From contig JAJDCB010000030.1 of the NCBI GenBank assembly GCA_029261065.1, forward strand, positions 48,196 through 112,195: a stretch of DNA of 64,000 nucleotides, read 5' to 3'. The DNA is from Candidatus Omnitrophota bacterium. Lineage in GTDB: Bacteria; Omnitrophota; Gorgyraeia; Zapsychrales; Zapsychraceae. The notes beneath the pieces were generated by a model, which searched no databases, was not told where the DNA came from, and was given only the letters and a program-made list of their open reading frames with translations. This document shows, one piece after another, positions 23,021-52,347 of this stretch. Positions within the stretch are counted from its first letter, which is position 1. Every line of letters starts with the position of its first letter. Made by a program: the position numbers and the translations under genes.

Positions 23021-23038
23021 AATTTAGTTGTATAAAAC

Positions 23039-23965: not shown

Positions 23966-23975
23966 AGGGATAAGT

Positions 23976-34233: not shown

Positions 34234-34260
34234 CCTTCCTCGCCTTATAAGCGAGGAAGG
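34234..34260. terminator. convergent-gene hairpin (ccttcctcgc-cttataa-gcgaggaagg) between greA and the minus-strand membrane gene
   Basis: Perfect 10-bp stem. A T-run precedes it on + and an A-run follows it. Plausible bidirectional terminator. Confidence 0.5.
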
Positions 34261-34261
34261 A

Positions 34262-35701
34262 TTAAGATACCGTCTTTTTTCCTACCGAAATTTTCTGTGA
34301 CTCCCACAAAGAATAATATACCCAAAATAATATTGTTGGTAAGACAGCAAAAAGAATCCTGTGTAAGGTGTTTTGTAGCCACCAACCAATTTCAAAGTAA
34401 GTATTTAAAAAATAATAAAATGTGACAATCCCTGTATAACACAAAAGAAAGATAGGGATAATGATTATTTTAGAAGACAAACATTTTAATCGACTCATAA
34501 TAAGTCCAATAAAGACAATCACCCATAACCCATTCCATTTTGGTTCCAAATAAGTAAACTCTCCCATGGTTTTTCCTACCATTTTATAAAAAGCGTTCCA
34601 TAAGGGGGCGCACATCTCAAAGAAATAAAATCCGAAGACTGTTTTAATGCGGTTTAGGGTAATTGGTTTTGTTGGAGATGTAAGGCCATTAACGAAGGTT
34701 TGATTGTTAGGCGAGTAAAAGATTTCAAAAATAATGGTAGGTAAAAAAGCAAAAAAGGCCCCTAAAAAGAAGGGAATAAGTAATCTTTTTTTGTTAGCCT
34801 CTTTGTTTTTCCAGAAGAAAAAGACTGGAGTTAGAAATAATATGACAAGGGATGCAAGATAACCTTCGCTTTTTGAGAAACTTAATAAACCAAGAAAAAT
34901 ACCACCGAGTAGGGCAAAGCTTTTGTTATTTTCGGTTTTAGCCATAATTAAAGAAAAGAAACTCGCTAATAAATAAAATCCGACAATGTTGTCACTATAT
35001 TGACTGTAAGACAATTTATTTAAAAGGGGCAAGCTCAAAAAAATAAAGGCAATCAAGATAGCATAAACAGATTGTGTGAGGTGTTTTAGGCTGTAATACA
35101 AGAGGCCTAAGCCTAAAATGGTATAAGCGTAAGAAGAGAAGACGGGAACTTTATAGATGGCTTCACTCTGGAACACCCAACCCCAAACATTGACGAGGGG
35201 AAAGAGGAGTGGGTAGTGAGGGCTTGATCGCCATAGAATAGGATCAAACATGTTTTTCCAATTTTCTGCTCCTAAGAAAATAAATTTAGCCTTTAAATTC
35301 CAAACCTGCCACGCATCCCAACCCCCATAAGCGTAAAAATGGGCTTGATACCAAAGTGGAACAGAGGCTCCTATAATGAGTATTAATGGGATAACATTAA
35401 AGGCATCTTTGGGCTGAAACGTTATTAATGGAAGATTATTTTTTTTAATAAGGAATAAAAGGAGAATAGATAGAGCTAGAAAAACAATTCCATGAATAAT
35501 AAGAAGGGCTGTTGGTTGAAAACGATTGAGAAAGATTAACGAAAAGAAATTAATATAAGCACTGAGTCCTAATCCAAGGCCACCGGCAAGCATCAATTTA
35601 AGCATTCGTTCTAGAGAGTGCTTAAGAAATAGGATATGAATAAAAAGATAGCCTATTAGAAGAGAGATAACAAAGGGAAGATAGATAAGTAGTGTTTTCA
35701 T
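34262..35701 (-). CDS. GT-C-fold-like polytopic membrane protein (ArnT/PMT/YkcB-like putative glycosyltransferase), paralog A
   Basis: About 12 TM helices. Acidic first-loop motif YGGWDAW and HYPLLFPLVNVW shared with its paralog at 36120-37487. Confidence 0.45.
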   Translation of the reverse strand: MKTLLIYLPFVISLLIGYLFIHILFLKHSLERMLKLMLAGGLGLGLSAYINFFSLIFLNRFQPTALLIIHGIVFLALSILLLFLIKKNNLPLITFQPKDAFNVIPLILIIGASVPLWYQAHFYAYGGWDAWQVWNLKAKFIFLGAENWKNMFDPILWRSSPHYPLLFPLVNVWGWVFQSEAIYKVPVFSSYAYTILGLGLLYYSLKHLTQSVYAILIAFIFLSLPLLNKLSYSQYSDNIVGFYLLASFFSLIMAKTENNKSFALLGGIFLGLLSFSKSEGYLASLVILFLTPVFFFWKNKEANKKRLLIPFFLGAFFAFLPTIIFEIFYSPNNQTFVNGLTSPTKPITLNRIKTVFGFYFFEMCAPLWNAFYKMVGKTMGEFTYLEPKWNGLWVIVFIGLIMSRLKCLSSKIIIIPIFLLCYTGIVTFYYFLNTYFEIGWWLQNTLHRILFAVLPTILFWVYYSLWESQKISVGKKTVS

Positions 35702-36123
35702 TGTCTTTGAGCGATGACGATTCCAAATTGATTGCGGCCAAGTGCTATTGCTTTAATTTTGTTCATCTCTAAATGGGCAACCCCATCGGATGAGCAGGCA
35801 AAAATGATATATTTATGATTTAAGTTGTTAAAATCTAACACAATGGGAGCTAAGGCGAATTGTGCGTGTGCAAAAAGTTTTGCGTTCTTTGGATCATCCA
35901 TGTCTTTGTCTGTGTAATATCCCATATATTCGACATCTTTTAAAAATGCCTCAATCCCTGCAAATTGATAACCCACCACATTAAAATCCAGAATTTTTTT
36001 ATAATTGTAAATGCGGCGAATTTCCTCTTTGAGTACGACGCTATTTGTTATCGTTAAGACGATAAGTGCTAAACAAAATAAAAATTGAGGGACAGTTCTA
36101 GGTTTTACGCGTGAGAAATTCAT
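35698..36123 (-). CDS. small membrane-anchored partner protein, paralog A
   Basis: 141 aa, N-terminal TM. The motif AQFALAPIVLD is shared with the 142-aa paralog (AQYFLAPTILE). 4-bp overlaps on both sides. Confidence 0.4.
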   Translation of the reverse strand: MNFSRVKPRTVPQFLFCLALIVLTITNSVVLKEEIRRIYNYKKILDFNVVGYQFAGIEAFLKDVEYMGYYTDKDMDDPKNAKLFAHAQFALAPIVLDFNNLNHKYIIFACSSDGVAHLEMNKIKAIALGRNQFGIVIAQRQ

Positions 36124-37487
36124 GTGTTTTCTATTTTTTTATTTTGGGGCCAATATACATAAAAAACATGAAATAGGATGGCCGGTAACAGATAAAAATA
36201 AATTCTAGGCAAAGAATAAGGGATCCACCAGTTAAGTCGGGTCTGTGTGCTGACTAAATATATAAAGATTATGATGATGAAGTAGCTCAAGAAAAAAAGA
36301 GTAACCCATAAGGTTTCTTTTTTTAAAAATTTAAATAATTTGGTAATCACCATGATAAGGATTAACATCCATATGTAACACCATTTTTTGTGAATAATTT
36401 CTTTACCTAAATAATCAAAAATAACGGCTAGACGATTGACGTTGATCATTTGTAATCCGGTTTGAGAGATGTTTGGTAAGATATCGCTATTAGGAGGTGC
36501 TAGAAATAACTTAAAGATAATGGTTGGTAAACAGGCTATAAGAAGTGTTATCAGAAAAAGCACATAGCAGGGCAGGTTGCTTTTTTGTTTGTTGCGTTGT
36601 TGCCAGAGTCGAATGAGAAAGATAACGGATAGTAATGCAGCAAAAACAATGCCTTCATTTTTTGCAAAGGTTAAGAATCCTAAATTTAAACCAGCTAGAA
36701 TAGAGATAGCAGGGTTTGACTCTTTATCGAGGAGATAAAAACAAATAAGGCTTATCAAGACAAACAAAGCAATAAGGATATCCGCATATTGTTGTGTGGC
36801 GCTAAATGCAAAATAAGGATGAAAGCCTAAGATAAGGGTCGCAAGTAGAGCATAGCCTTTTTTGATAAACAATGATAATCCTGTGTACATAAACATCGCA
36901 CAAGAGACGGTCAGCAGTATGCACGTGATAAACGGGACATAAAGCATGTGGGTATGAGAGAAGCTATTAAGCCATACATTGATAAGCGGCAATAACAAGG
37001 GATAGTCGGGGTGTGTGTGCCAAGAAAGGTTTGTTAGAATGTCGTCTAAGGGTGCACTACTTAGAAGTAAAAATTTCATTTTCATATTCCACATCGCCCA
37101 AGCATCCCATTCTCCATGAGGGTGGACGGATGCCACATAGTAATAAAGAGCAATAAGAAGTGTGAAGGCACAAATGACACTATAAGAAAAGAAAGAAAGT
37201 TTGTGTATGCGAAAGGGGTTGAGTAAGGTTCTGATGTTTTTGTTTGTTTTTAAGTTAAGTAGGATGACGCCTAAGAGGCTTAGAAGATTAAGACCTACAA
37301 TCAGCCAAGCATAAAATTTGTTAAAGAGAAGAAAGACAAAGAATGTCAGATAAGCCGAGAGACATAGGCCTGTGATGATAGATAAGCTTAAGTGTAGGAG
37401 GCTTTGATAGTATCGGGTTTCTTTGAAAATAAGCGAAAGGCTAAAGTACCCGAGGAGAAAAGAAATTAAGTGTGCGATGATAAACAT
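36120..37487 (-). CDS. GT-C-fold-like polytopic membrane protein, paralog B
   Basis: HGEWDAWAMWNMKMKF and HPDYPLLLPLINVW are collinear with the 479-aa paralog. Confidence 0.45.
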   Translation of the reverse strand: MFIIAHLISFLLGYFSLSLIFKETRYYQSLLHLSLSIITGLCLSAYLTFFVFLLFNKFYAWLIVGLNLLSLLGVILLNLKTNKNIRTLLNPFRIHKLSFFSYSVICAFTLLIALYYYVASVHPHGEWDAWAMWNMKMKFLLLSSAPLDDILTNLSWHTHPDYPLLLPLINVWLNSFSHTHMLYVPFITCILLTVSCAMFMYTGLSLFIKKGYALLATLILGFHPYFAFSATQQYADILIALFVLISLICFYLLDKESNPAISILAGLNLGFLTFAKNEGIVFAALLSVIFLIRLWQQRNKQKSNLPCYVLFLITLLIACLPTIIFKLFLAPPNSDILPNISQTGLQMINVNRLAVIFDYLGKEIIHKKWCYIWMLILIMVITKLFKFLKKETLWVTLFFLSYFIIIIFIYLVSTQTRLNWWIPYSLPRIYFYLLPAILFHVFYVYWPQNKKIENT

Positions 37488-37489
37488 TG

Positions 37490-37918
37490 TTATTTTCGTC
37501 TTAAGAGTAAAGCTTGTCCATATTCGTTGTTGGTTGTGCGCATGGCATTGAGCGTTTTAATTGTTTTAACAATATAAGGTGGATCCTCAGAGTCAATGAT
37601 ACTAAAGAGATGCGAGTCATCTTGCAACTCAAGAATAGTTGGCGCTAAAAAATATTGGGCCTGAAGAAGGATGCCGTCATTATCTTCTCGTGTAATAGCT
37701 TTGCTGGTTAGATAGCCGGCCCTTTTTTCGTTTTTAAGAAAAGGTTTAAATGTTTCAAATTGTGTGCCTGGTTCAAGATAAACGGGTAGGTTTAAATTTT
37801 CATGGTATTTCTTAATGCAATAGACGCCTGCATGAAAAATATTGTAAATGATTAAACACAGGCAAAGAGAGGCGATTGCTCCATTGAGGGAGAAGAGATA
37901 TTTGAGGGCCTGACGCAT
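37490..37918 (-). CDS. small membrane-anchored partner protein, paralog B
   Basis: 142 aa, homologous to 35698-36123. Confidence 0.4.
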   Translation of the reverse strand: MRQALKYLFSLNGAIASLCLCLIIYNIFHAGVYCIKKYHENLNLPVYLEPGTQFETFKPFLKNEKRAGYLTSKAITREDNDGILLQAQYFLAPTILELQDDSHLFSIIDSEDPPYIVKTIKTLNAMRTTNNEYGQALLLRRK

Positions 37919-37955
37919 GGACTTATTTTACAATTGTTAAGGAATTGTGTGGTAA

Positions 37956-39644
37956 TTATTTCAACTTTTCTTGAATCTCTGCGATCAGGTTATGATCAAA
38001 TTCATATTCTAATTCTTTGGCACGTAGGATGTGTGTTAATGCTTTTGGGTAATCCTTTTTGTGTCTATAAATTTTCGAAAGAAAATAATGCCCTTTTCCT
38101 GAGTCTTTATTCGTTTCTATGGCTTTAAGCCCTGATACTAAAGCCTCATCGTATCGATTTGATTTGATATATAAAAGACACTTATTAATAAGAGCTTTGG
38201 TGTATTCGGGATCATATTTAAGAGCTAAGTTGTAATTAACAACGGCGAGATCATATTTTTCTGAGTTTTGATATACAAGCCCAAGGTTGTAATGAGCATT
38301 TACATATTTAGGACGAAGCTTGACGGCTTTAGTAAAATCGGCGATCGCTAAATCGTATTGCTTTTTGCGAAGATAGATAACGCCTCTGTTATTAAGGATG
38401 AGAGGCGTGTTGGAAGAATATTCCATGGCTTTATCCCAAACCTTACCAGCATCTTTCCAGACTTTGTTTTGAAAGTGTGTTCGTGTGCCCAGTAATCCTA
38501 AGATGATGACGATACAAGTTGAAGCGATAAGAAAATGTTTTTGTTTGCGTTTTTTTGTTTGGGTTAATAATTGATCGGCTAGAGAACCTAATAAAAGACA
38601 GAGCCCTAAGCTGGGTAGGTACATAAAGCGATCAGCCACAACACTAACATGAACTTCTTCGGCCATGCGTAATAGGAAAAAGATGGAAAAGTAATAGTAG
38701 AGAAGAGCAAATAGGACTAAACGGTTTTTTCGAAAGCGAATTAGCAAATAGATAATAAGGGCAAAGACAATGACAGCAATGTTGTAATGAAGGTGATCAA
38801 ATCCAATGGGTTTGGGTAATTCATAAATTGGGCTTAAGTGAATGGGCAGGAAGAACTTTTGAATGTAAAATGTAAATGACCAGGTCCAGATCATGATTGC
38901 TTGGATAAAGTCTTTGGCTGGGACCCTCGCGTTAATTAAATAGGTAACTGCCGCGACAGGAACGATATAGAAAAAATGAGGAATTTTTTCTTTTAGAACA
39001 TTAAATGTGATCTTTCGGCCATGGTACCAGTCGAGGACCAGGAGAATAAAGGGTAAACTTAAGGCCATGGATTTTGCCAAGATGCTTAATAATCCTGCTA
39101 ACATTGATAAGATGAAAAATTTAATTTTTTTGTTGTCAAGATAATGCCAATAACTGCATAAGGCTAACATATAGAAAAAGGCATAAAGGACATCTTTTCT
39201 CTCCGTAATCCAAGCAACCGATTCGACATGCATCGGATGAATACCAAAGAGAAGGGCTGCCAGAAAAGCAGCCCGTATGCTGAGCCCCATCTGCAGGGCC
39301 AAAAGATAAATGAGGCCGCAGACGGCAACGTGTAAAAGGATGTTATTTAATATATAGAGAAAAGGCTTATCTTCAACGAAATGCCATTCTATGGCAAATG
39401 ATAAGACGCTTAAAGGAGCGTAAGTCTTTGTGACAGTTGATTTAAAGATATTTTTGATGCTCTGGAAACTAAGATGATGGACATCTACATTATCTGTCAC
39501 ATAAACATCATCATCCCAATTGGTGAATTCGTTTCCTAGATTTGAGGAAAAAAGGACAAATACAATGATTCCTAAGCAAATAGCCGTTAAAATGGCCTTT
39601 TTTTTGGGGATCGGGGGCGTAATAGTCTTAGATCGCTTTTTCAT
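37956..39644 (-). CDS. TMTC-like membrane glycosyltransferase: N-terminal GT-C/PMT-like TM domain + C-terminal TPR repeats
   Basis: Conserved N-terminal FTNWDDDVYVTDN (FxxDD) motif, about 10 TM helices, and a C-terminal run of TPR units (AHYNLGLVYQNSEKYDLA...). Confidence 0.55.
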   Translation of the reverse strand: MKKRSKTITPPIPKKKAILTAICLGIIVFVLFSSNLGNEFTNWDDDVYVTDNVDVHHLSFQSIKNIFKSTVTKTYAPLSVLSFAIEWHFVEDKPFLYILNNILLHVAVCGLIYLLALQMGLSIRAAFLAALLFGIHPMHVESVAWITERKDVLYAFFYMLALCSYWHYLDNKKIKFFILSMLAGLLSILAKSMALSLPFILLVLDWYHGRKITFNVLKEKIPHFFYIVPVAAVTYLINARVPAKDFIQAIMIWTWSFTFYIQKFFLPIHLSPIYELPKPIGFDHLHYNIAVIVFALIIYLLIRFRKNRLVLFALLYYYFSIFFLLRMAEEVHVSVVADRFMYLPSLGLCLLLGSLADQLLTQTKKRKQKHFLIASTCIVIILGLLGTRTHFQNKVWKDAGKVWDKAMEYSSNTPLILNNRGVIYLRKKQYDLAIADFTKAVKLRPKYVNAHYNLGLVYQNSEKYDLAVVNYNLALKYDPEYTKALINKCLLYIKSNRYDEALVSGLKAIETNKDSGKGHYFLSKIYRHKKDYPKALTHILRAKELEYEFDHNLIAEIQEKLK

Positions 39645-39844
39645 AATTCCATAAGCATATCATTTTTTAGGCCAAAAGCAAAGAATTGATTAGAGGTCAT
39701 TTAAAAGAGCCCTTAATGGTGTTCGTTTCTTAAGAGTACGTATTTTTCCTTGTATCCCATATGTTTAGGGGCTAGAATAATGACCTAACTTAAGTGTTTC
39801 TCCCTTTTTTTAATGAGATTTTTTAAAAAAGTATCCAAAAGTGT

Positions 39845-41524
39845 ATGAAACGTAATATTTGGTTTTTATGTATTGGCCTCATTATCGTTACTGGTATTTT
39901 TGCTAGAGTATATGATTTGAGTGGTCATTTTAGCCATATAGATGATATTGGTGTTGCCAAAACGATACTCGATCACAAGCTCGCTGATAAATCTCCTTTT
40001 CTAGCCGTTCCTTCCCGTTGGACATTCGCCCCTTTTCAATATTTTATTACCCCTTTTTTAGTCTCTATTGATCACACCTATCGTCAGCTTTTATTTTGGG
40101 GTCGTTTGCCTTCCTGTTTTTTTGGGATCTTAGGGATATTTTTTATGATTCAGTTTTATCGCCTTTATGAAGGTGATTTTTCTTATAAGACTCTTGTTCC
40201 GTTGTTCTTTTTTTGCTGTACCTGGGAAAACATCATATTCTCGAAACTTATGTATAATTATGCATTGGCTGTGACCGCATTCGTCGTATTGCTGATCCTT
40301 TATATGGATTATTTAAAGAAAATGAACTTTACTCTTAAAAAAGTTCTTTTTAACAGTTTGTGTTTAGGGGCGTTATGTTGGATGCATTATATTTTTCTTT
40401 ATTTTGTTCCTGTGTTTTATTTGTGTACATTTTTATATGCTTGCCAGTTCACGGAAAATAAGGGCAAAGTTGTTTTACAATATTGTTTAGGTGGGATCGT
40501 TGTCATTGTGTCTGTGTTTCCTTTGTGGTTTCTTTTTCTTCGGAAATTAATAGCCTCTGGACATTATGGGTTATATGGTTGGAATAGTGGAATTGATAAA
40601 GAATTTGTTTTTCATCTCCCAGAGGCGGGCTTCTTTCACGATATAGGTTATGCCGTTTCTTTTTTCTTTAAAAATTTCTTCTATATTTTTCAATTAAACA
40701 CAGGGTTTTTCCCAAACACACACTCCATTTTCCTACCTTTAAGTATAGTATTTCTTATTTTCTTTGTAATTGGGTTTTTTAGATTATTAACTCACAAAAA
40801 TTTGCATAAACGCTATTTAGGAATTTTCTTTGTTGTAACGATAATTGTATGGATTCTTTTAGTATGTACGCAGCGTCTTACTTTTTCACCAACGCGACAT
40901 AATTTTATTTTTATGCCGTTAATTGTTATTACACTGACCGAAGGGCTTTACTTGGTGCTTAAGGAGATTGGAAAGCGGATCGGGAGAAGTCATTTTAAGG
41001 ATTGGGGACAAGCAGTAATAATTGTAGGGTTGTTAATTTTGTTTGGATGTCATTATCAAACATTTCTTATCGAACGAAAAGATCGGTTAAATGAGCAAGA
41101 GATTTTAAAAATAGTTAAAACATACAATGTTGATACCATTATTCTGGCTGTTTGGACTCAACAAGTTGAGATGATGAAGAGTATTCGAGATCATTTTCAA
41201 TTTTATGAAACAGGATTTCGTGAAGATGCCAATATCTCGAAGGGGCCATCGACATATAAAAGGATTGCTTGGATTAGTCATCGAGATAAATTTAGTCCCA
41301 AATCTTACGAAAGGGCGAGATCAGCTGTAAATCATTATATTTATTACACTAATCCTAGACGTGTTAAGCGTAATAAGAAAGAATTGTCGTTGTTAAGATA
41401 TACTTTTAGATCTTATCGGGTGATTTATAAAAAGGTTATTGATTCAGATGTCGAACTCGAATTTGATAATAGAACACATAATGGAACGAATAATTTGTAT
41501 ATCTATATATTAGAGAGAAATTAA
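39845..41524 (+). CDS. polytopic membrane protein, GT-C-like (putative glycosyltransferase)
   Basis: 559 aa. First-loop acidic motif SHIDDIGVA and more than 10 TM helices. Confidence 0.4.
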   Translation: MKRNIWFLCIGLIIVTGIFARVYDLSGHFSHIDDIGVAKTILDHKLADKSPFLAVPSRWTFAPFQYFITPFLVSIDHTYRQLLFWGRLPSCFFGILGIFFMIQFYRLYEGDFSYKTLVPLFFFCCTWENIIFSKLMYNYALAVTAFVVLLILYMDYLKKMNFTLKKVLFNSLCLGALCWMHYIFLYFVPVFYLCTFLYACQFTENKGKVVLQYCLGGIVVIVSVFPLWFLFLRKLIASGHYGLYGWNSGIDKEFVFHLPEAGFFHDIGYAVSFFFKNFFYIFQLNTGFFPNTHSIFLPLSIVFLIFFVIGFFRLLTHKNLHKRYLGIFFVVTIIVWILLVCTQRLTFSPTRHNFIFMPLIVITLTEGLYLVLKEIGKRIGRSHFKDWGQAVIIVGLLILFGCHYQTFLIERKDRLNEQEILKIVKTYNVDTIILAVWTQQVEMMKSIRDHFQFYETGFREDANISKGPSTYKRIAWISHRDKFSPKSYERARSAVNHYIYYTNPRRVKRNKKELSLLRYTFRSYRVIYKKVIDSDVELEFDNRTHNGTNNLYIYILERN

Positions 41525-43588
41525 ATGTTAAACCAAATAGGATTGGATAGACTTTTGTATAAAGGGTTTGGATTGCAAACAAAGAAGGCGCAGGTTGCTT
41601 TTTTAGTGATACTGGCCATTAAAGTGTTGGTGATGATTCTATTTTCTTCAGATTATCAGAATCGCCTTTTTATTCCTTTTGTACAATATTTTATCGAAGT
41701 CTCTGGTAATCCTTGGGATTATTTCTATGCGCAAGGGAGATATGATCAATTCCCATATTCACCTGTTATGCTTTACTTTTTATCTATTTGTTATGCGCCT
41801 TTTTATTTATTAGGAGCTACCCATTCTTTATTAGGCCAGTTTTTCTTTAAATTACCAACGCTGTTTGCTGATCTCACCATTTTTTATTTATTGTGTCGTA
41901 TGTTTGAAGACAAAATGAAGGTGATGATTTATTATTTTGCAACACCTATCATTATTTATGCCTGTTATATGCATTCTCAGTTGGATCTTATACCAACGGC
42001 ATTACTTTTTTTATCGGTTTATTTATTAACTAAACGAAACTGTATCACCTCAGCGCTTGTATTCGGTTTGGCCGTGTGTGCCAAATTACATGTTGTTGCA
42101 GCTTTCCCGCTCCTGCTTATTTATTTACTAAAAACACACAAATTAAGAGGTGTTATGACTTTTTTATTCATAGCACCGTCAGTGTTTTTGATTATTGTTT
42201 TTCCTTTTTGGACAGAAGGTTATCAGCAGTTGGTGCTTAATAATTCCAAGCAAACGTTGATTTATGATTCTTACATCGCTGTAGGCAACCTGAAAGTATA
42301 CTTTACCGTTTTGTTGGTGGCCATTTTTTATGCGCGCGTCAGTGCTTTTCGTAAGATGAATAAAGATCTGCTCTACACATTTTTGGCCCTTATTTTTTCA
42401 ACGTTTGTATCATTGGCCCAACCCTCGCCGGGATGGTATGTGTGGTTGTTTCCTTTTCTTAGTATCTTTTTTATAAAATTTCATGAAAAAGCTCAACATA
42501 TTATTCGCTTATATGTGGCACTAAACGTGATGTATTTAGTTTATATGTTGCTTTTTTATTTACCCGAGTATCATGATCTTATTTTCTTGAAAACACCTAT
42601 TCATTTTAAGATCGATATTGAGAAATATCGTAATGTTAGTTTTACATTGCTCGAAGCTGTATTAATAGCGAGTATGTATGCTTTTTATAAGTTTGGAATC
42701 AGAAGTAACTTTTATTATAAGAAAAATACACCAGGCGTTATTGGGATTTCTGGTGATAGTGCCGCCGGTAAAACGACGATCCTATCTGATATAAGAAAGC
42801 TTTTTGGCCATCGTGTTTTAGAGTTAGAAGGGGACGCTGATCATAAGTGGGAACGCGATGATGAGCATTGGGAGGAGTTAACGCATTTAAATCCGAAAGC
42901 CAATTATCTTCATCGGCAATATAATGATATTCTTAATCTTCATAATCGTAATGCTGCTTTTCGTTGTGATTATGATCATAGTACGGGTAGGTTTACAAGT
43001 TCAAGAAAAGTAAGGGCAGATGACTATATTGTTTTAAGCGGACTACATGCTTTTTATCTTCCTAAAATGCGTAAGATTATTGATTTAAAAGTATTTGTTG
43101 ATACAGATGAAGGGTTGCGTCGATATTGGAAGGTTCAACGGGACACACGTGATCGTGGACGTAAAGTCAAAGATATCTTAAAGCAGATGGACCAGCGTGC
43201 TTTAGATGTTAAAAAATATATTCACCCTCAATATGATTTTGCAGATATTGTTGTTCAGTACTTTACGGATGATCCTATTAAATATGAAGAGCGTAATGCC
43301 AGGTATCATATGAAGTGTAAGGTTATTCTTGATTCAAACGTTTCTCTTCAAGCGATTGTTCATCGATTAGAAACAAAGCTTGATGTAACTTGGGACTATT
43401 CTCAAGATTTAAAAAATCAAAGTCTTATTGTGGATGGATGGCTTGAAAAAGAATATATCGCAAAGATGGCCCAAGAATATATAGTCAATTTAGAAGAATT
43501 GTTGGGTGATGATCCTATTTGGTTGGATGGTTACCGAGGTCTTGTTCAGTTTATGGTGTTGTTAATGTTAAGTGAGAAATTAAAATGA
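41525..43588 (+). CDS. fusion protein: N-terminal polytopic membrane domain (GT-C/DUF2029-like) + C-terminal uridine-kinase/PRK-family P-loop kinase domain
   Basis: C-terminal 230 aa: Walker A GISGDSAAGKTT and ...VLSGLHAFYL...VFVDTDEGLRRYWKVQRDTRDRGR...YDFADIVV, collinear with Udk. The N-terminal 400 aa has about 11 TM helices. Confidence 0.6.
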   Translation: MLNQIGLDRLLYKGFGLQTKKAQVAFLVILAIKVLVMILFSSDYQNRLFIPFVQYFIEVSGNPWDYFYAQGRYDQFPYSPVMLYFLSICYAPFYLLGATHSLLGQFFFKLPTLFADLTIFYLLCRMFEDKMKVMIYYFATPIIIYACYMHSQLDLIPTALLFLSVYLLTKRNCITSALVFGLAVCAKLHVVAAFPLLLIYLLKTHKLRGVMTFLFIAPSVFLIIVFPFWTEGYQQLVLNNSKQTLIYDSYIAVGNLKVYFTVLLVAIFYARVSAFRKMNKDLLYTFLALIFSTFVSLAQPSPGWYVWLFPFLSIFFIKFHEKAQHIIRLYVALNVMYLVYMLLFYLPEYHDLIFLKTPIHFKIDIEKYRNVSFTLLEAVLIASMYAFYKFGIRSNFYYKKNTPGVIGISGDSAAGKTTILSDIRKLFGHRVLELEGDADHKWERDDEHWEELTHLNPKANYLHRQYNDILNLHNRNAAFRCDYDHSTGRFTSSRKVRADDYIVLSGLHAFYLPKMRKIIDLKVFVDTDEGLRRYWKVQRDTRDRGRKVKDILKQMDQRALDVKKYIHPQYDFADIVVQYFTDDPIKYEERNARYHMKCKVILDSNVSLQAIVHRLETKLDVTWDYSQDLKNQSLIVDGWLEKEYIAKMAQEYIVNLEELLGDDPIWLDGYRGLVQFMVLLMLSEKLK

Positions 43589-44304
43589 GAGAGATCCCTT
43601 GGAGTCCTATAACTGGTTTATTGTTGGATTTGGATAATACGTTATACGATTACAACAAAGCACATCAACCAGCTTTACGAGAAGTTGTTCAGTTTTTATC
43701 TCAAAAGACTGGAGTTGTTAAAGAGGATATAGAAAAAGAATATGGTGTTGCTCGTGGGATGATTCATCAGCAGTTAAAGGGTAAAGCATCAAGTCATAAT
43801 CGTTTACTGTATTTTCAAAAGTTATTAGAAAATATAAATAAACCCATCATGCCTTATGCCTTAGAAGCGTATGATTTGTATTGGGATGTGTTTATTGAAC
43901 ATATTGTTTTGTTTGATGAGGTGATGTCTTTTTTAGAGAAAAATCAGGATAAAAGGATTTGTATCTTAACGGATTTAACAGCTGATATTCAGCATAAGAA
44001 GTTGCATAAGCTTGGATTAAGTTCTTATATTCACGCCCTTGTAACAAGTGAAGAAGTGGGCGTTGAGAAACCTGATCGCGGGATGTTTGAATGTGGGTTA
44101 AAGAAGTTAGGATGTATGAAAGAAGAGGTTTGTATGATCGGGGATAACTATGAGAAGGATGTGATGGGAGCGGTTGAGTTGGGTATGAAAGCGATTTGGG
44201 TGAATAAGGAGGGGGGGGAGCGTAGGGAGAGAGCTCTGGTTGTGGAGGTTGAGGATTTAAATTTTTCTTTAATGAGTTCCCCGCTTTCGCGGGGACGACA
44301 GTAG
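43585..44304 (+). CDS. HAD-superfamily phosphatase
   Basis: Motif I LLDLDNTLYD, motif III K, motif IV GDNYEKDV. The last about 10 codons (SSPLSRGRQ) come from palindromic repeat unit 44276-44300. Confidence 0.65.
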   Translation: MREIPWSPITGLLLDLDNTLYDYNKAHQPALREVVQFLSQKTGVVKEDIEKEYGVARGMIHQQLKGKASSHNRLLYFQKLLENINKPIMPYALEAYDLYWDVFIEHIVLFDEVMSFLEKNQDKRICILTDLTADIQHKKLHKLGLSSYIHALVTSEEVGVEKPDRGMFECGLKKLGCMKEEVCMIGDNYEKDVMGAVELGMKAIWVNKEGGERRERALVVEVEDLNFSLMSSPLSRGRQ

Positions 44305-44372
44305 TATGCGATCTCTGTTTTCGCGGGGACGACAACTATACTGTCATCCTCGCGAAAGCGGGGATCCGTGCG
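44276..44372. repeat. cluster of palindromic repeat units (gttccccgctttcgcggggacgaca; half-unit gttttcgcggggacgacaa; tgtcatcctcgcgaaagcggggatccgtgcg)
   Basis: Same ATCCCC-N8-GGGGAT family as at 22908-23020. It spans the end of the HAD gene and the start region of the next gene. Confidence 0.7.
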
Positions 44373-44395
44373 GTTTTACTGTTCAAAGAGTAACC

Positions 44396-46042
44396 ATGCA
44401 AATTATAATCCCTATGTCCGGCGTAGGCAAGCGTTTCATTGACGCTGGCTATAAAGATGTTAAACCGTTAATCGAAGTGGACGGTTTGCCTATCATTGCA
44501 CATGTTATCAACATGTTTCCGGGTGAAAATAATTTTACTTTTGTCTGCAATAAAACGCATTTACAAGAAACGCCAATGGAAGAAATTTTAAAAGGTCTTG
44601 CTCCTTTTGGAAAAATTATAGGGATCGAACCTCATAAGAAAGGTCCTGTCTATGCGGTGGCAGAAGTGTTTGACGCAATTGATGAAAGGGAGGAGACAAT
44701 CGTTAACTATTGTGATTTTTCAAAGTATTGGGATTATGATGGCTTTCTTTCTCATACAAGAGCGCGGCAGGCTGATGGTGCGATAGCAGCGTATAAGGGG
44801 TTTCATCCTCATATGTTAGGTTCTACCAATTATGCCTTTATGCGCGACGATCAACAATGGCTTTTAGAAATTCAAGAGAAAGAGCCGTTTACGGATAATC
44901 GTATGCAAGAATATGCTTCTGATGGAACGTATTATTTTAAAAACGGCGGACTCGTAAAAAAATATTTTCAGCAATTGATGGATGAGGATATAAACCTTAA
45001 AGGAGAATATTATATAAGTTTGGTCTATACGTTAATGCTGAGAGATGGTCTTAAGTCTTCTGTTTATGAAATACAACATATGTTGCAATGGGGGGAGCCT
45101 GGACATTTACAAGAGTATCAACAATGGTCAAAATATTTTTCTAAAATGGTTGATGAGACAAAAAGCATTATCAATAATGAAGAGACGATTAATCTAATAC
45201 CTTTAGCTGGACGTGGACAACGATTTGTTGATGAAGGCTATCAAACACCAAAACCTCTTATAGATGTCAGTGGAAAACCAATGATTGTTCAGGCGGCCTC
45301 TTATTTGCCTCAATCGGGGGCGCAAACTTTTATTTGTTTAGAAGATCATCTAAAAGAATATCCTATCAAAGTTGCTCTTCTAGAAGCCTATCCCCAAGCC
45401 AATATTGTTTCCCTTAATGAAGTTACAGAAGGTCAGGCGTGCACGTGTGAGAAAGGAATAAGAGAAGAGGATTATGATAAACCGTTGTTTATTGCCGCCT
45501 CAGATAATGGAATGATATGGTCTGAAAAAAAGTTGCAATCCTTATTGGATGATACCTCAATAGGTTGTCTCGTTTGGAGTTTCCGGCATCATCCTTCAAG
45601 CGCTCAAAATCCTCAAATGTATGGTTGGATTAAAACGGATGAGAAAGAAAATGTTTTAGGCGTCTCAGTTAAAGTTCCAATTTCAGATGATCCGTTTAAT
45701 GATCATGCCATCATCGGGGCTTTTTATTTTCGTAAAGCCAGATTTTTTATTGATGCATTAGAACGACTTTATAAGAGTGATGTTCGTGTTAATAATGAAT
45801 TTTATGTCGATAGCTGCATTAACGAAATTGTGGCCATGGGTTTAAAGGCAAAAGTCTTTGAGGTGGATCATTATATCTGTTGGGGAACGCCGAATGATTT
45901 AAAAACATACGAATACTGGCAAAGTTATTTTCATAAAAGTGATCAACATCCGTATTGTTTAGAGAAAGATCGGAGAATGGAGTTAAGTAAATTGAAGGAT
46001 TATGAAAAAAAATATTCTTCTTTTAAACAGGAGCACAATTAA
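44396..46042 (+). CDS. tandem double nucleotidyltransferase (two sugar-phosphate/alcohol-phosphate NTP-transferase domains, LicC/IspD-like)
   Basis: Duplicated N-terminal signatures IIPMSGVGKRF...KPLIEVDGLPII and LIPLAGRGQRF...KPLIDVSGKPMI. Start placed at MQIIIPMSG (ATG 44396), because the upstream 30 codons are repeat-derived. Confidence 0.55.
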   Translation: MQIIIPMSGVGKRFIDAGYKDVKPLIEVDGLPIIAHVINMFPGENNFTFVCNKTHLQETPMEEILKGLAPFGKIIGIEPHKKGPVYAVAEVFDAIDEREETIVNYCDFSKYWDYDGFLSHTRARQADGAIAAYKGFHPHMLGSTNYAFMRDDQQWLLEIQEKEPFTDNRMQEYASDGTYYFKNGGLVKKYFQQLMDEDINLKGEYYISLVYTLMLRDGLKSSVYEIQHMLQWGEPGHLQEYQQWSKYFSKMVDETKSIINNEETINLIPLAGRGQRFVDEGYQTPKPLIDVSGKPMIVQAASYLPQSGAQTFICLEDHLKEYPIKVALLEAYPQANIVSLNEVTEGQACTCEKGIREEDYDKPLFIAASDNGMIWSEKKLQSLLDDTSIGCLVWSFRHHPSSAQNPQMYGWIKTDEKENVLGVSVKVPISDDPFNDHAIIGAFYFRKARFFIDALERLYKSDVRVNNEFYVDSCINEIVAMGLKAKVFEVDHYICWGTPNDLKTYEYWQSYFHKSDQHPYCLEKDRRMELSKLKDYEKKYSSFKQEHN

Positions 46043-46755
46043 TGGCTAAGAAAAAACTTTCTATTGTTGTTCCTTGTTACAATGAAGAAAAAAATATTCC
46101 TCTTATTCTTAATCGCTTTCTTAAAGTTTTAGGTCGAGCTGATATTGAAGTTATTTTGGTCAATAATGGATCAACGGATGATAGTGAGAATGTTTTAAAG
46201 GAATTATTACCTCAGTATCCTTTTGCAAGATCGGTTAGAGTTGAAGTCAATCAAGGTTATGGTTTTGGTATTATTGCCGGGCTTAATGAAGCTGTTGGTG
46301 ATTATATCGGTTGGACGCACGCAGATATGCAAACAGATCCTAATGATGTGATGAGAGCGTTGGCTATCATTGAAGAAAAAGGGAGTCCATTAAACATTTT
46401 TATTAAGGGAGACCGCCGAAATCGACAATTGTTTGATCAAGTGTTTACCTGGGGGATGAGTTGTTTTGAGTCAATGTATTTGGGGAAACGATTATGGGAT
46501 ATTAATGCGCAACCAAATATTTTTTCTCGGTCATTTTATTCAACGTGGAAAAATCCTCCACATGATTTCTCGTTAGATTTGTATGCTTTATATATGGCTA
46601 GGCGGCAAGATATAGAAGTTGTTCGATTTGAAGTTGTTTTTCCCAAACGGATTTACGGTCAATCCAGTTGGAATACAGGATTAAAATCAAAAGGTAAGTT
46701 TATTAAAAGAACACTCGATTTTAGTGTCTCTTTAAAAAAGAGATTAAAAGTATGA
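46042..46755 (+). CDS. GT2 family glycosyltransferase, Dpm1/GtrB-like polyprenyl-phosphate sugar synthase
   Basis: LSIVVPCYNEEKNI with DxD-like NNGSTDDS. Short soluble catalytic-domain size (237 aa). Confidence 0.65.
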   Translation: MAKKKLSIVVPCYNEEKNIPLILNRFLKVLGRADIEVILVNNGSTDDSENVLKELLPQYPFARSVRVEVNQGYGFGIIAGLNEAVGDYIGWTHADMQTDPNDVMRALAIIEEKGSPLNIFIKGDRRNRQLFDQVFTWGMSCFESMYLGKRLWDINAQPNIFSRSFYSTWKNPPHDFSLDLYALYMARRQDIEVVRFEVVFPKRIYGQSSWNTGLKSKGKFIKRTLDFSVSLKKRLKV

Positions 46756-47357
46756 TTTACATCGCACATCGTATCAACTCTAAAGAAGAGTTAAAAAAAT
46801 TACCTCAAGAATTTGGTGTTGAATTAGATTTGCGTGATCATGGTGAGCAACTCATTGTTCAACATGACCCTTTTAAAGATGGAGAAAATTTTGAAGAGTA
46901 TCTAGGAGAATATCAACACGGGCTTATGATACTTAATATTAAAAGCGAACGCATTGAACATCGTGTTTTGGATTTGCTTGAAAAATATGCTATTAAAGAT
47001 TATTTCTTCCTCGATTCATCTTTTCCTATGGTTTATACATTAAGCCAATCGGGCGAGCACAATGTCGCTGTGCGTTTTTCGGAATTTGAAGGGATTGATA
47101 CTGTTTTAGCTATGAAAAAACAAGTCAATTGGGTTTGGGTCGATTGTTTTACAAAAATGCCTTTGGATCGAGATAAAAGTTTAGCTATTAAACAAGCGGG
47201 TTTAAAAATATGTTTAGTTTCTCCAGAGTTGCAAGGCCGAGATGATCAAATAGAGGCGTATGCCAAAGAAATTCTGGATGCTTCAATAGATGTTGATGCT
47301 ATTTGTACAAAAAGTTACAATATTGAGAGATGGCAATCCATTCTTAAACGAGCATAA
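46752..47357 (+). CDS. glycerophosphodiester phosphodiesterase (GDPD)-like domain protein
   Basis: IAHRIN...ELDLRDHGEQLIVQHD matches the GDPD TIM-barrel N-terminal catalytic His/Asp pattern. 201 aa. Confidence 0.45.
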   Translation: MIYIAHRINSKEELKKLPQEFGVELDLRDHGEQLIVQHDPFKDGENFEEYLGEYQHGLMILNIKSERIEHRVLDLLEKYAIKDYFFLDSSFPMVYTLSQSGEHNVAVRFSEFEGIDTVLAMKKQVNWVWVDCFTKMPLDRDKSLAIKQAGLKICLVSPELQGRDDQIEAYAKEILDASIDVDAICTKSYNIERWQSILKRA

Positions 47358-47360
47358 ATT

Positions 47361-49081: not shown

Positions 49082-49204
49082 TTAAACTTCGTAATAATAC
49101 TTAGATTGTTTGTGGAACCTCCTTATTTCGGATAAGTCCTATTTGTCTTAAAATATTAGTGTAAGGTTAACTTAATAGAGGAATGATTTAAAAAGGATGA
49201 TTTT

Positions 49205-50026: not shown

Positions 50027-51043
50027 ATGATTAAAGTAGGTATTATTGGATGTGGGTATTGGGGGCCGAATCATATACGTATTTTTTCTCAATTGGCTAA
50101 CTCTCAAGCTGTGATGTGTGCTGATTTGGATGAAAATCGGTTGGCAAATGTTAAAGATTTATACCCTAATCTCCAAACAACAACAAATTATAAAGATATT
50201 TTGACCAATGATGAGATAAGGGCTGTGTGTATCGCATCACCTACCAATACCCATTTTAATCTCACCAAAGAGGCTTTAGAGCATGGCAAGCATGTTCTTG
50301 TAGAAAAACCTCTTGCTTTACATACAAAAGAATGTCAGGAACTCAAGGAGTTAGCTGAAAAAAAGAAGTTGGTGCTTATGGTGGGCCACGTTTTTCTTTT
50401 TAATTCCAGCATCCAATGGCTTAAAGATTACATTAAAGCCGGAGAGATGGGACAAATTTATTATGCTTATTGTACGCGAACCAATTTAGGACCATTTCGT
50501 TATGATGTTAATGCGTTATGGGATTTAGCCCCACACGATATTTCTATCTTAAATTATTTATTTGAAGGTTCTCCTATTAATGTCTCGGGACGCGGTCAGA
50601 AATCATTAGGCAGTTCGCTTGAAGATTTATCATTTGCTACTATGGAATACGAACAAGGCATTATTGCAAACGTTCATGTGAGTTGGTTGGATCCAAAGAA
50701 GGTGAGGCAGATGACAATTGTTGGAGAGAAAAAGATGGTGACGTGGGATGATTTAGATGGTTTAGGTCCGATTAAGCTTTATGATAAACATGTTGAGAAA
50801 ACCTCAACCTATTATGCGACGTACGGGGAGTTTCAGTTGCTTTCTAAAGAAGGAAGTATCACGTTACCCAATATCTCAGCAAGTGAACCTTTAAAGGCGC
50901 AGGGTCAGTATTTTATGGAGTGTGTGGAGAAGGTAAAAAATCCTGATCTAGCCGATGCGCAAAAAGGATTGGAGGTTGTTAAAACGTTGTGTGGTATTCA
51001 AGAATCCATGGATTTAAAGGGAACTTGTGTTGCCATTATATAG
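50027..51043 (+). CDS. Gfo/Idh/MocA family NAD(P)-dependent sugar oxidoreductase
   Basis: Rossmann KVGIIGCGYWGPNH, then EKPLA and the C-terminal alpha/beta domain typical of the family. Confidence 0.7.
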   Translation: MIKVGIIGCGYWGPNHIRIFSQLANSQAVMCADLDENRLANVKDLYPNLQTTTNYKDILTNDEIRAVCIASPTNTHFNLTKEALEHGKHVLVEKPLALHTKECQELKELAEKKKLVLMVGHVFLFNSSIQWLKDYIKAGEMGQIYYAYCTRTNLGPFRYDVNALWDLAPHDISILNYLFEGSPINVSGRGQKSLGSSLEDLSFATMEYEQGIIANVHVSWLDPKKVRQMTIVGEKKMVTWDDLDGLGPIKLYDKHVEKTSTYYATYGEFQLLSKEGSITLPNISASEPLKAQGQYFMECVEKVKNPDLADAQKGLEVVKTLCGIQESMDLKGTCVAII

Positions 51044-51055
51044 AGAGATAAAGCT

Positions 51056-51619
51056 ATGAGTTATTTTAAACACGAAAAAGCGATTGTTCACCCAGAAGCC
51101 GAAATAGGCGAGGGGACACGTTTATGGGCGAACACTAATATTCAGCAGGGCGCTACGATTGGCAAAGATTGTAATATTTGTGATGGAAGTTTTGTAGAGA
51201 GTGGCGCGATTGTTGGTAATCATGTCACGGTCAAACATCATGTTTCTATTTTTGATGGTGTCACGATTGAAGATGATGTATTTATCGGATCCAATATTGC
51301 CTTTATTAACGATCGGTATCCTCGGAGTAATAACGGGGGTGAGTGGACGTTAGAGAAGACTACGGTTAAAGAAGGTGCGACGTTAGGAAGTAATGTTGTT
51401 ATACTTTGCGGGTTAAGTGTTGGGCGTTACGCTGTTGTTGGGGCGGGAAGTGTTGTAACAAAAGATGTTGATGATTACACGATTGTAGGTGGTAATCCTG
51501 CGCGTCAAATGGGTTATGCTTGTGTGTGCGGTAAAAAGTTAGATAAGGAATTATCTTGTAGTTGTGGGAAAAAATATTTATTGAAAGATAAAGCGCTTGT
51601 GATGGATGATCAAAAATGA
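51056..51619 (+). CDS. hexapeptide-repeat (left-handed beta-helix) sugar N-acetyltransferase with C-terminal Cys4 motif
   Basis: Repeating [LIV]G.... hexads (IGKDCNICDGSFVESGAIVGNHVTV...). C-terminal CVCGKK...CSCGKK. Confidence 0.65.
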   Translation: MSYFKHEKAIVHPEAEIGEGTRLWANTNIQQGATIGKDCNICDGSFVESGAIVGNHVTVKHHVSIFDGVTIEDDVFIGSNIAFINDRYPRSNNGGEWTLEKTTVKEGATLGSNVVILCGLSVGRYAVVGAGSVVTKDVDDYTIVGGNPARQMGYACVCGKKLDKELSCSCGKKYLLKDKALVMDDQK

Positions 51620-52347
51620 GCAAAGTTCTCGTCTCCCCGGTCGCGTTCAACGAAAAAATTAAGTTACAAAATGTTATAAAACGATTTTTGAAAAGTGAGT
51701 TTAACGGTACGTTTGATTATTTGATCGTGGATGATGCCTCAACAGATGGGCAAACAGAGATGATTGCCGGGTATAAAGATCAAGGGGTTATGACCCTTAG
51801 ACATCAAACACGTCAAGGCGTTGGTTCGGCCATTCGTACAGCTATACGGTATGCTCAAAAACATGATTACGATGTATTGGTGATTATGGCCGGTAATGAT
51901 AAAGATAACCCAGAGGAAATTGCAAGATTAACAGATCCGATCATTAAAGACGGGTGCGATCTTGTCCAAGGATCTCGTTATTTAGGAAAAAATGGCATTG
52001 GTGGGGATATGCCTTTTTATCGAAAGATTGCAACGAGATTACATCCGATGTTACTTTCTTTAATTTCTGGACGTCGTGTTACAGATTCGACAAATGGTTT
52101 TAGGGCTTTTCGTTTATCTCTTTTTAATGATGAACGCATTAACATTGATCAATCTTGGTTAGATCAATATGAGCTGGAACCTTATTTGTTATATAAAGTT
52201 ATTAAATTAGGTCATAAATTTCAAGAAGCTTCTGTAACAAAGATATATCCAGCTAAGAAGTTGGGTTATACAAAAATGCGTCCTTTAATCGGTTGGTGGA
52301 GTATATTGCGCCCGCTGATTTATTTAGGATTGGGTATAAGAAAATAA
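51616..52347 (+). CDS. GT2 family glycosyltransferase, Dpm1-like
   Basis: DYLIVDDASTDGQT and LVQGSRY motifs. 243 aa. Confidence 0.6.
   Translation: MSKVLVSPVAFNEKIKLQNVIKRFLKSEFNGTFDYLIVDDASTDGQTEMIAGYKDQGVMTLRHQTRQGVGSAIRTAIRYAQKHDYDVLVIMAGNDKDNPEEIARLTDPIIKDGCDLVQGSRYLGKNGIGGDMPFYRKIATRLHPMLLSLISGRRVTDSTNGFRAFRLSLFNDERINIDQSWLDQYELEPYLLYKVIKLGHKFQEASVTKIYPAKKLGYTKMRPLIGWWSILRPLIYLGLGIRK

Follow-up and report, generated by a model that had tools for sequence, protein, structure and literature searches.

Paired genes for a small membrane protein and a GT-C glycosyltransferase, duplicated in tandem in Omnitrophota: a candidate two-subunit enzyme

The solved bacterial GT-C enzymes (ArnT, PglB, AftA/B/D and PimE) have periplasmic parts of their own. 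Dedicated single-pass auxiliary subunits of GT-C enzymes are, to our knowledge, found only in eukaryotic enzymes, such as GPI-MT-I and OST, and our literature searches gave no bacterial counter-example. The recorded case closest to the locus described here is GPI-MT-I, in which the GT-C enzyme Gpi14 has the single-pass auxiliary subunit Pbn1 (PMC12653191). Periplasmic glycosylation systems that combine a GT2 with a GT-C enzyme have also been described (PMC11127046).

Here we examine two tandem pairs of a small (S) and a large (L) gene within 64 kb of DNA from an Omnitrophota bacterium, the whole stretch being referred to below as the window. We lean towards the view that each S-L pair would form a two-subunit, periplasm-facing GT-C glycosyltransferase. 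Such a pair would resemble Gpi14/PIG-M with Pbn1/PIG-X, for the partner by analogy and not by homology. Pbn1/PIG-X has type I topology, its helix being C-terminal and its lumenal domain rich in beta structure, whereas in the small protein an N-terminal helix precedes a small alpha/beta domain, and our sequence and fold comparisons revealed no resemblance between them (Pbn1 features as described in PMC12653191). GPI-MT-I is moreover a eukaryotic ER enzyme with Dol-P-Man as the donor and GPI as the acceptor, whereas the S-L pair is bacterial. ArnT (GT83) carries a C-terminal periplasmic domain within its one polypeptide and is not known to have a separate subunit; L479 and L455, in contrast, end in the membrane.

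The likeness to the GtrA/GtrB/Gtr* systems (PMC11127046) would lie in the combination of a GT-C enzyme with a GT2 that makes, or here is predicted to make, a polyprenyl-phosphate sugar, in transfer outside the cytoplasm and in a small membrane protein encoded alongside. GtrA, however, has four helices, whereas the small protein here has one helix and a soluble domain. Its coupling is with the GT-C and not with the GT2, whose gene here lies on the other strand. Set against the pattern of GtrA and ArnE-F (∼120 aa, four helices), the small proteins differ in having one hydrophobic segment and no Pfam match. As for the parts of a three-component system, the GT-C is present, a GT2 is conserved nearby but divergent and 12 kb off in the window, and a flippase was not recognised. 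With the protein O-mannosyltransferases (GT39; Pmt1-Pmt2) the large proteins share an acidic motif in the first outside loop, and Pmt1-Pmt2 also act as paralog pairs. L455 and L479 are, however, much shorter, with 455 and 479 aa that are nearly all membrane helices and no Pfam match to a MIR domain, and the partner in GT39 is a second GT-C, whereas here it is a small unrelated protein.

The four genes and their large products

The locus comprises four genes, listed in the order of transcription:

37490..37918, minus strand: S142, type-B small subunit candidate, 142 aa (ORF; S141 paralog; family-profile match, E 8.9e-38)
36120..37487, minus strand: L455, type-B GT-C glycosyltransferase, 455 aa, PMT/PMT_2-like, without a soluble domain (ORF; Pfam PMT; L479 paralog)
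35698..36123, minus strand: S141, type-A small subunit candidate, 141 aa (ORF; AF2 model; family search)
34262..35701, minus strand: L479, type-A GT-C glycosyltransferase, 479 aa (ORF)

These four minus-strand ORFs lie exactly where the original prediction had placed them. It had further proposed that all four genes are translationally coupled by ATGA overlaps, which holds at two of the three junctions, 455 to 141 (36120-36123) and 141 to 479 (35698-35701), but not at the 142-to-455 junction, which reads TAA-ca-ATG with a 2-nt spacer. Pairwise alignment bears out the proposed paralogy of both the large proteins (29% identity between L455 and L479 over 471 columns, E 4e-47) and the small ones (26% between S142 and S141 over 129 columns, E 2e-10), and the shared blocks quoted for it are indeed present, in the large proteins as YGGWDAW / HGEWDAW and HYPLLFPLVNVW / HPDYPLLLPLINVW and in the small proteins as AQFALAPIVLD / AQYFLAPTILE. 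A search of the 64-kb window gave no further copy besides the two pairs. Between the window and its closest relative, the related locus L002, pN is 0.12-0.21 against a pS of 0.69-0.82, with synonymous sites saturated, and the non-synonymous divergence of the small genes is as low as that of the large genes.

The large proteins had been described as 12-TM and GT-C-like. The helix number is approximate, as the AF2 model and positive-inside counts suggest ∼13 membrane helices, the chain starting outside and ending inside, and no soluble domain follows the last helix in either the model or the topology counts. The GT-C likeness stands, with a Pfam PMT match above threshold for L455, the invariant columns and the GT-C fold; both proteins have a multi-helix membrane fold with a conserved GT-C module, and judged by sequence and fold L455 and L479 are GT-C enzymes. 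L455 scores 27.1 bits against Pfam PMT (PF02366, cut-off 22.7), the sole Pfam family that it passes, and stays below the cut-off for PMT_2 (22.5 against 26.1 bits). The PMT match begins at residue 108, so that the first three helices (1-107) fall outside it. L479 reaches no Pfam family threshold, and many L479 homologs have a precomputed match to PF13231. An NCBIfam search of the large proteins gave no match, the ArnT equivalog included, and PDB sequence searches with the large-family profile and with L455 alone gave no meaningful match.

Across 112 sequences of the large family, 20 columns are invariant, including D129, K277, E279 and R351, and L455 has all 20, among them D128, the K and E of FxKxEG and the R. 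D129, the Asp of GGWDAW (112 of 112 sequences; D128 is its L455 counterpart), lies in a loop that loop charge counts place outside. We infer that it corresponds to the catalytic Asp of the solved GT-C enzymes, a match of a looser kind than a residue-by-residue alignment. The presumed catalytic residues are kept in both the A and the B large proteins and the periplasmic loops differ. The three extra N-terminal helices carry conserved Ser/Gly packing motifs.

The small proteins and their pairing with the large genes

Both small proteins have a single N-terminal membrane helix followed by an alpha/beta domain. In S142 the helix spans approximately residues 14-32, and in S141 a signal-anchor helix (residues 13-31, including N27) precedes a domain of ∼95 aa. 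The AF2 model of S141, with a pLDDT of 90.3, consists of one long helix and the alpha/beta domain. N27, the membrane-helix Asn, is conserved in 96 of 116 small-family sequences, and at position 71, within the GY(Y/L)TDK motif, 99 of the 116 have Thr and the other 17 Ser. The conserved polar residues of the domain (T71, D72, Q86, Q88, D97, N99, N100, H103, D109 and N131) are found mostly at C-terminal strand ends in the AF2 model. Over 158 sequences the N-flank of the small protein has a net charge of +3.4, compared with +1.6 for the C-flank; the ∼95-residue domain would be periplasmic.

The small family comprises ∼292 clusters at 50% identity (E<=1e-3), the best 150 of which have lengths of 71-193 aa each. 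Its members come from Omnitrophota wherever the source organism is named. We found no relative of it in Pfam, NCBIfam or the PDB and no fold or sequence match of the small protein to known enzyme families or to PIG-X/Pbn1. The original prediction, which took the small proteins for a conserved partner family to which no function could be assigned, thus described a real family that is still without one, and conservation in other genomes is borne out by family members across 34 related loci, with the large gene following wherever there is sequence beyond the small one.

The S-L pairs of the window were found again in 33 related loci, and roughly 45 linked pairs were collected. All 48 small ORFs from the window and 34 loci stand alone: no fused S-L form occurs among them (the longest is <=208 aa from stop to stop) or among the best 150 of 292 small-family matches (all <=193 aa), and hhalign of the small-family profile gave nothing either with the 559-aa neighbour or with the extended large protein of L030 (998 aa). 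Every locus with downstream sequence has a same-strand large homolog of matching type 3' of the small gene. The S-L junctions fall within -10 to +17 nt in 28 of 30 cases (one of them a longest-ORF artefact that reads as an overlap), and 14 of the 30 measured are 4-nt overlaps. This tight coupling is not absolute, because the type-A small and large genes are 2.8 kb apart in L006 and 190 bp apart in L009. The most divergent detectable member of the small family, on a contig of 55.6% G+C, overlaps an L-family gene. Almost without exception, the small gene accompanies the large one on its upstream side.

Pairing follows type without exception: a type-B small gene stands before a type-B large gene, and a type-A small gene before a type-A large one, a pattern in the sequences that fits cognate partners that diverged together. 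The two families co-diverge with r(S,L) = 0.75 and a partial correlation of 0.65 (permutation p = 0.0005), the control being a single marker, GreA. Because the tandem B-A order is present in 12 related loci, the duplication is old; sequence comparison places it as an ancient event kept across many Omnitrophota species and not a local one. The L479 type (A) is the core copy, found in 32 of 34 assessable related loci (the exceptions being L027 and L029). The metagenome scan for type-B small genes yielded 2 loci, and the type-B contexts come mainly from exact look-ups.

Neighbouring genes and a candidate sugar donor

Three further features bear on the operon and on the possible substrate of the pairs:

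37956..39644, minus strand: 562-aa membrane protein with C-terminal TPR repeats and a GT-C-like N-terminal half (Pfam TPR matches; tblastn)
34234..34261, no strand assigned: G+C-rich hairpin within the 37 bp that separate the convergent genes greA and L479 (RNAfold -22 kcal/mol, either strand)
50027..52347, plus strand: GFO/IDH/MocA oxidoreductase (UDP-GlcNAc 3-dehydrogenase-like), NeuD/PglB-type hexapeptide acetyltransferase and 243-aa GT2 at 51616-52347 (Pfam/NCBIfam; synteny)

The 562-aa TPR gene, transcribed in the same direction as S142 and 37 bp upstream of it, probably opens the operon that contains the pairs; its GT-C-like N-terminal half shows weak similarity to L455 (tblastn against this region, E 0.002). 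Its ortholog also adjoins the module in three relatives, always upstream: L002 has it on the strand of the module, like the window, and in L031 and L032 it is divergently transcribed. At the other end, the hairpin is probably a transcription stop for both greA and L479, which the consensus terminator scan missed because there is no clean T-tail. The promoter scan was at chance level and the terminator scan uninformative on operon ends.

The three plus-strand genes at 50027..52347 are candidate makers of a lipid-linked sugar donor. Their Pfam and NCBIfam matches are all below equivalog cut-offs, and the 243-aa GT2 resembles polyprenyl-phosphate hexose synthases. In most relatives these genes sit directly upstream of the pair and are divergently transcribed (21/25, 12/25 and 16/25 loci in synteny clusters 2, 14 and 4, respectively); in the window ∼12 kb of other genes separate them from the pairs, and the strands are opposite. 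No flippase candidate was recognised among the conserved neighbours of the pairs.

A proposed two-subunit enzyme and its alternatives

In the enzyme that we propose, the large subunit would be the catalytic part, with ∼13 helices and without a soluble domain. Invariant D129 would be placed in its first canonical outside loop, and K277/E279 (FSKSEG) together with R351 would be the residues that handle a sugar donor linked to polyprenyl phosphate. Gene context suggests that this donor is probably a polyprenyl-phosphate sugar supplied by the conserved divergent neighbours, most likely through a sugar 3-dehydrogenase, an N-acetyltransferase and a GT2 polyprenyl-phosphate sugar synthase. The small protein, probably a separate helper subunit of the GT-C, would insert with its N-terminus in the cytoplasm and a single helix bearing the conserved Asn. 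This helix would pack on the large subunit, possibly on its three extra N-terminal helices, holding the alpha/beta domain over the periplasmic face, where it might contribute to binding of the acceptor or of the donor's head group, or might stabilise the enzyme in a Pbn1/PIG-X-like manner. The old tandem duplication would have given rise to cognate pairs A and B. Because neither the periplasmic loops nor the small subunits are the same in A and B, the two pairs probably form distinct linkages or serve separate acceptor sites. The original prediction, which called the small protein an obligate partner and read the duplication as two acceptor or donor specificities, pointed to a similar possibility. 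More tentatively, and in our view less likely than not, the small family could be an exchangeable 'specificity subunit', encoded apart from a catalytic membrane core and the first bacterial counterpart of PIG-X/Pbn1, with the A and B sets directing one donor to two envelope acceptors.

The small protein could instead be an independent periplasmic accessory enzyme or carrier, co-transcribed with the GT-C and not bound to it, in the manner of ArnD before ArnT or as a flippase substitute. Its conserved polar residues at strand ends make a typical alpha/beta ligand site, its place beside the GT-C matches the 'third component' slot of the GtrA/GtrB/Gtr-type systems, and a nearby flippase was not found. 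Flippases of the GtrA and ArnE/F types have four helices, however, and with one helix only the small protein is therefore neither. Its domain is only ∼95 residues long, lacks a conserved set of metal ligands or nucleophiles and matches no enzyme family. The type-matched pairing kept strictly since the duplication, together with the partial mirror-tree signal, favours a direct partner, which leaves such an independent role unlikely. The same pairing is also compatible with an enzyme and its target, that is, with the small protein as an O-glycosylated acceptor of the adjacent GT-C (for example at the Thr/Ser of GY(Y/L)TDK), one target per enzyme. In Pfam the large protein comes nearest to protein O-mannosyltransferases, and residue 71 is Thr or Ser in every one of the 116 sequences. 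Yet T71 is at a structured strand-to-loop site of a compact domain with pLDDT above 90, whereas targets of the PMT type are usually disordered Ser/Thr-rich stretches, and the large proteins lack the MIR domain that is usual in protein O-mannosyltransferases. Coupling that suggests ∼1:1 synthesis would be unusual for an enzyme and its substrate, and the intramembrane conserved Asn points to helix-helix packing; we consider an acceptor role very unlikely.

Inherited synteny within one phylum could also account for the S-L adjacency, the small protein then having an unrelated envelope function. The small family has been seen in this lineage only, and the whole neighbourhood (greA, ybaB, yggT and mla) is syntenic across Omnitrophota, so linkage alone could be historical. 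The pair nevertheless moves, and was duplicated, as a unit, with a different context in L029; it stands as the sole plus-strand unit inside a minus-strand block, its linkage extends even to the most divergent member on the 55.6% G+C contig, and start/stop overlaps are kept at 40-60% protein divergence. A purely historical association seems to us quite remote. We give least credence to a non-catalytic GT-C-fold scaffold with its partner, comparable with PIG-U and PIG-T of the GPI transamidase and organising another envelope process, given the invariant acidic residue of the first canonical outside loop, the invariant K/E/R set, which is typical of an active GT-C, and the resemblance of the conserved neighbours to sugar-donor synthesis genes.

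Should the small protein prove to be merely co-transcribed with the large one, the locus would amount to two GT-C paralogs of an ordinary kind. If it is a true subunit, its ∼292 clusters are a new protein family, and the division of a GT-C enzyme into core and helper arose independently in bacteria. The two genes, with a natural diverged second copy, would then offer a system for studying acceptor choice by GT-C enzymes, and the pairs would mark a conserved step of envelope glycosylation in Omnitrophota, whose cell surface is essentially unstudied. The Omnitrophota are largely uncultured and are in part host-dependent nanobacteria.

Two tandem gene pairs

The ORF listing places the two small genes and the two large genes consecutively on the minus strand.

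37490-37918, minus: S142, small protein of type B, 142 aa
36120-37487, minus: L455, large protein of type B, 455 aa
35698-36123, minus: S141, small protein of type A, 141 aa
34262-35701, minus: L479, large protein of type A, 479 aa
37956-39644, minus: 562-aa protein (membrane region in the N-terminal half, TPR repeats at the C-terminus), 37 bp upstream of S142
34234-34261: 28-nt hairpin, rich in G+C (-22 kcal/mol for each strand), between the convergent greA and L479 genes

L455 and L479 align end to end (29% identity, E 4e-47), and S141 and S142 share 26% identity over 129 residues (E 2e-10), bearing out the paralogy claimed for both couples in the original prediction, the quoted motifs of which were all found in the proteins. 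Its statement that all four genes are joined by ATGA holds for the L455-S141 and S141-L479 junctions, but the DNA reads TAA-ca-ATG, with a 2-nt spacer, between S142 and L455; with this one correction the observation was confirmed, and its interpretation is supported in part. No additional copy of either protein lies elsewhere in the 64-kb window. The hairpin occupies most of the 37-bp greA/L479 gap, lacks a clean T-run and was not reported by the consensus terminator scan. GC skew is positive in all 2-kb bins across the window (1-64000), and the long ORFs lie nearly all on the plus strand, the five-gene minus block at 34262-39644 being among the few exceptions.

The large and small protein families

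L455 and L479 are GT-C glycosyltransferases, new members of a known superfamily. L455 passes the gathering threshold of Pfam PMT (PF02366; 27.1 bits, threshold 22.7) and scores narrowly under the Pfam threshold for PMT_2. L479 itself has no Pfam match; PF13231 is precomputed on many of 295 L479 homologs, some of which are named 'glycosyltransferase family 39 protein'. Sequence search detected no PDB chain for the large family, and the AF2 model of L479 (112 sequences; pLDDT 93.5, pTM 0.94) has Gpi14 as its top structural match. Twenty alignment columns are invariant over 112 sequences, among them G126, W128, D129, A130, W131, K137, Y163, P164, Q234, Y235, K277, E279, R351 and R448, and L455 has all 20. 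Family-wide K+R counts of the loops point to about 13 helices in an N-out, C-in arrangement and would put the GGWDAW loop (residues 124-183) on the extracytoplasmic side. The PMT match begins at L455 residue 108, leaving ahead of it three extra N-terminal helices with the conserved small residues S13, G17, G41, G43, S47 and F52. A soluble domain is absent from both proteins. At one related locus (L030, 7414-10410), the large protein of type B reaches 998 aa, with GT-C as its first ∼450 residues; for the remaining ∼540, neither a Pfam match nor similarity to the small proteins was found.

The small proteins form a real, unnamed family, matching no Pfam or NCBIfam model and no PDB sequence. Searching 1.84 billion representative proteins with the family profile yielded 292 clusters at E<=1e-3 (221 at E<=1e-10; lengths 71-193 aa among the best 150 of the 292). 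The conservation attributed to the small partner in the original prediction is supported. All organism-named matches are Candidatus Omnitrophica/Omnitrophota, two others being named only 'hydrothermal vent metagenome'; by title, the 22 genome loci (all MAGs) are 13 Omnitrophota, 8 'uncultured Planctomycetales' and 1 'bacterium'.

The AF2 model of S141 (pLDDT 90.3) has a long helix (11-44, hydrophobic part 13-31) followed by a compact α/β domain made up of strands (66-70, 95-98, 105-108, 125-130, 136-140) and helices (78-90, 113-122). Family-wide conservation is seen at G51, F54, G68, Y69, T71, D72, Q86, A87, Q88, L91, A92, L96, D97, N99, N100, H103, D109, C110, N131 and G134, together with P93 in 116/116 sequences. 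The conserved polar residues of the domain lie mostly at C-terminal strand ends and, from the usual behavior of such folds, form a predicted ligand or interface site. The membrane helix varies except at Asn27, kept in 96/116 sequences (the remainder mostly Gly or Ser), which we take as a sign of helix-helix packing within the membrane. Net charge in 158 members is +3.4 in the flank N-terminal to the helix, where acidic residues are nearly absent, and +1.6 in the C-terminal flank; this favors an N-in/C-out topology with the domain in the periplasm.

Small-large linkage and the two-subunit reading

Thirty-four related loci were gathered by exact look-ups and by two scans, one of a genome collection and one of metagenomes. 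The family HMM found 48 small ORFs in these and the window, all stand-alone, and a large homolog lies downstream on the same strand wherever the contig extends past the small gene. Fourteen of the 30 measured junctions are 4-nt overlaps and 28 fall within -10 to +17 nt, counting L020 as an overlap since its value of -103 is a longest-ORF artefact and the junction reads aaATGAtg. The small-large exceptions are L006, where ∼2.8 kb with a TPR-containing ORF is inserted between the type-A genes (7433-10202), and L009 (190 bp); the only other break in tight linkage is at L028, where ∼2.8 kb with a TPR-containing ORF separates the B pair from the A pair (7824-10632). Even P0182, the most divergent detectable small-family member (E 5e-6; 55.6% G+C contig), overlaps through TGATG a large-family gene that keeps the HGDWDAW, YPLLLP and TKNEG motifs. 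Upstream of the most divergent pair (L034, 3-1145) is a 380-aa protein, incomplete at the contig end, in which a large soluble region is followed by a membrane helix at the C-terminus; judged by eye, the protein looks like the C-terminal portion of YfhO-type proteins.

Two orthologous pair types can be told apart: in type A an S141-like gene always stands ahead of an L479-like gene, and in type B an S142-like gene always stands ahead of an L455-like gene. The B-A tandem of the window is also present in L002, L005-L010, L028 and L030-L033, most other loci have type A alone, and L029 has type B without an A pair in a different context. The duplication is thus old and conserved rather than local. 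When the window is compared with L002, non-synonymous changes are far fewer than synonymous ones in all four genes (pN 0.12-0.21, pS 0.69-0.82). Across 19 loci, the pairwise distances of type-A small proteins track those of the type-A large ones (r = 0.75; 0.65 as a partial correlation with GreA controlled for, permutation p = 0.0005), a co-divergence that is supportive only, because GreA is a single control marker.

The best-supported reading makes each pair a GT-C enzyme of two subunits, with the large protein as its putative catalytic core and the small protein as a single-pass subunit, the periplasmic domain of which would replace the soluble parts fused in other GT-C enzymes. The closest documented parallel is Gpi14-Pbn1 (PIG-M/PIG-X), in which the GT-C protein has one helix packed on it and is covered by a lumenal domain (PMC12653191); the small protein is, however, not homologous to Pbn1/PIG-X and differs in both topology and fold. 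A conserved small partner with a gene of its own has not, as far as we found, been described for GT-C enzymes of bacteria. We infer the complex, donor and acceptor alike.

Inherited synteny might by itself keep the small and large genes adjacent, an account we consider less probable. A non-catalytic scaffold is also a less likely role for the module, all invariant catalytic-type residues being retained in both A and B pairs. The stand-alone small protein could instead be a glycosylation target, or an independent accessory enzyme or carrier, and we rank both below the two-subunit enzyme. The pair types differ in their small subunits and in periplasmic loops such as the A-type P331-N333-T335-N338-G339-S342 loop, differences that would be compatible with, and are not proof of, the two specificities originally proposed.

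Genomic neighborhood

Across loci, the pair is the sole plus-strand unit inside a conserved minus-strand block, with greA, ybaB, yggT, mlaD, mlaF, mlaE, an NYN gene and an LPG_synthase_TM gene downstream. The divergent upstream genes encode a GFO/IDH/MocA oxidoreductase, which among NCBIfam models most resembles UDP-GlcNAc 3-dehydrogenase, a hexapeptide acetyltransferase of NeuD/PglB type, and a GT2 of 243 aa resembling dolichyl-phosphate hexose transferase, AglJ, PpgS and ArnC, all of these matches being under equivalog cut-offs. Known periplasmic glycosylation systems combine GT2 with GT-C (PMC11127046), and the same logic is found here; no flippase was recognized in the neighborhood.

50027-52347: dehydrogenase-acetyltransferase-GT2 block, ∼12 kb from the pairs
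41525-43588, plus: 687-aa protein with an N-terminal multi-helix membrane domain and a C-terminal phosphoribulokinase/uridine-kinase domain

The interval between pairs and block (37956-49600) holds glycosylation genes, a PAS histidine kinase and two response regulators; its contents include the 562-aa TPR protein, a 559-aa membrane protein, the 687-aa fusion, a HAD hydrolase, a double nucleotidyltransferase, another GT2 and a 201-aa unknown protein. Since the divergent block directly adjoins the pair in most related genomes, the interval looks like a lineage-specific insertion or rearrangement. The 687-aa gene starts directly after the stop of the 559-aa gene and is followed by the HAD hydrolase, nucleotidyltransferase and GT2 genes. 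Its kinase domain matches Pfam PRK (E 5e-33) and, under the cut-off, an NCBIfam phosphoribulokinase subfamily (170 bits); the protein is an unusual membrane-tethered kinase, perhaps in a sugar-donor pathway.

Beyond the two pairs, window regions 19197-25172 and 37956-41524 hold unusually many GT-C-like membrane proteins: a 733-aa YfhO-like protein, a 398-aa PMT_2-like protein with a 308-aa TPR protein ahead of it, a 482-aa membrane protein with no matches, the 562-aa TPR protein and the 559-aa protein, which has no Pfam match in the window. A similar set neighbors the type-B pair of L029, where a protein of the same length, at the position matching the 559-aa gene, has a weak PMT_2 match.
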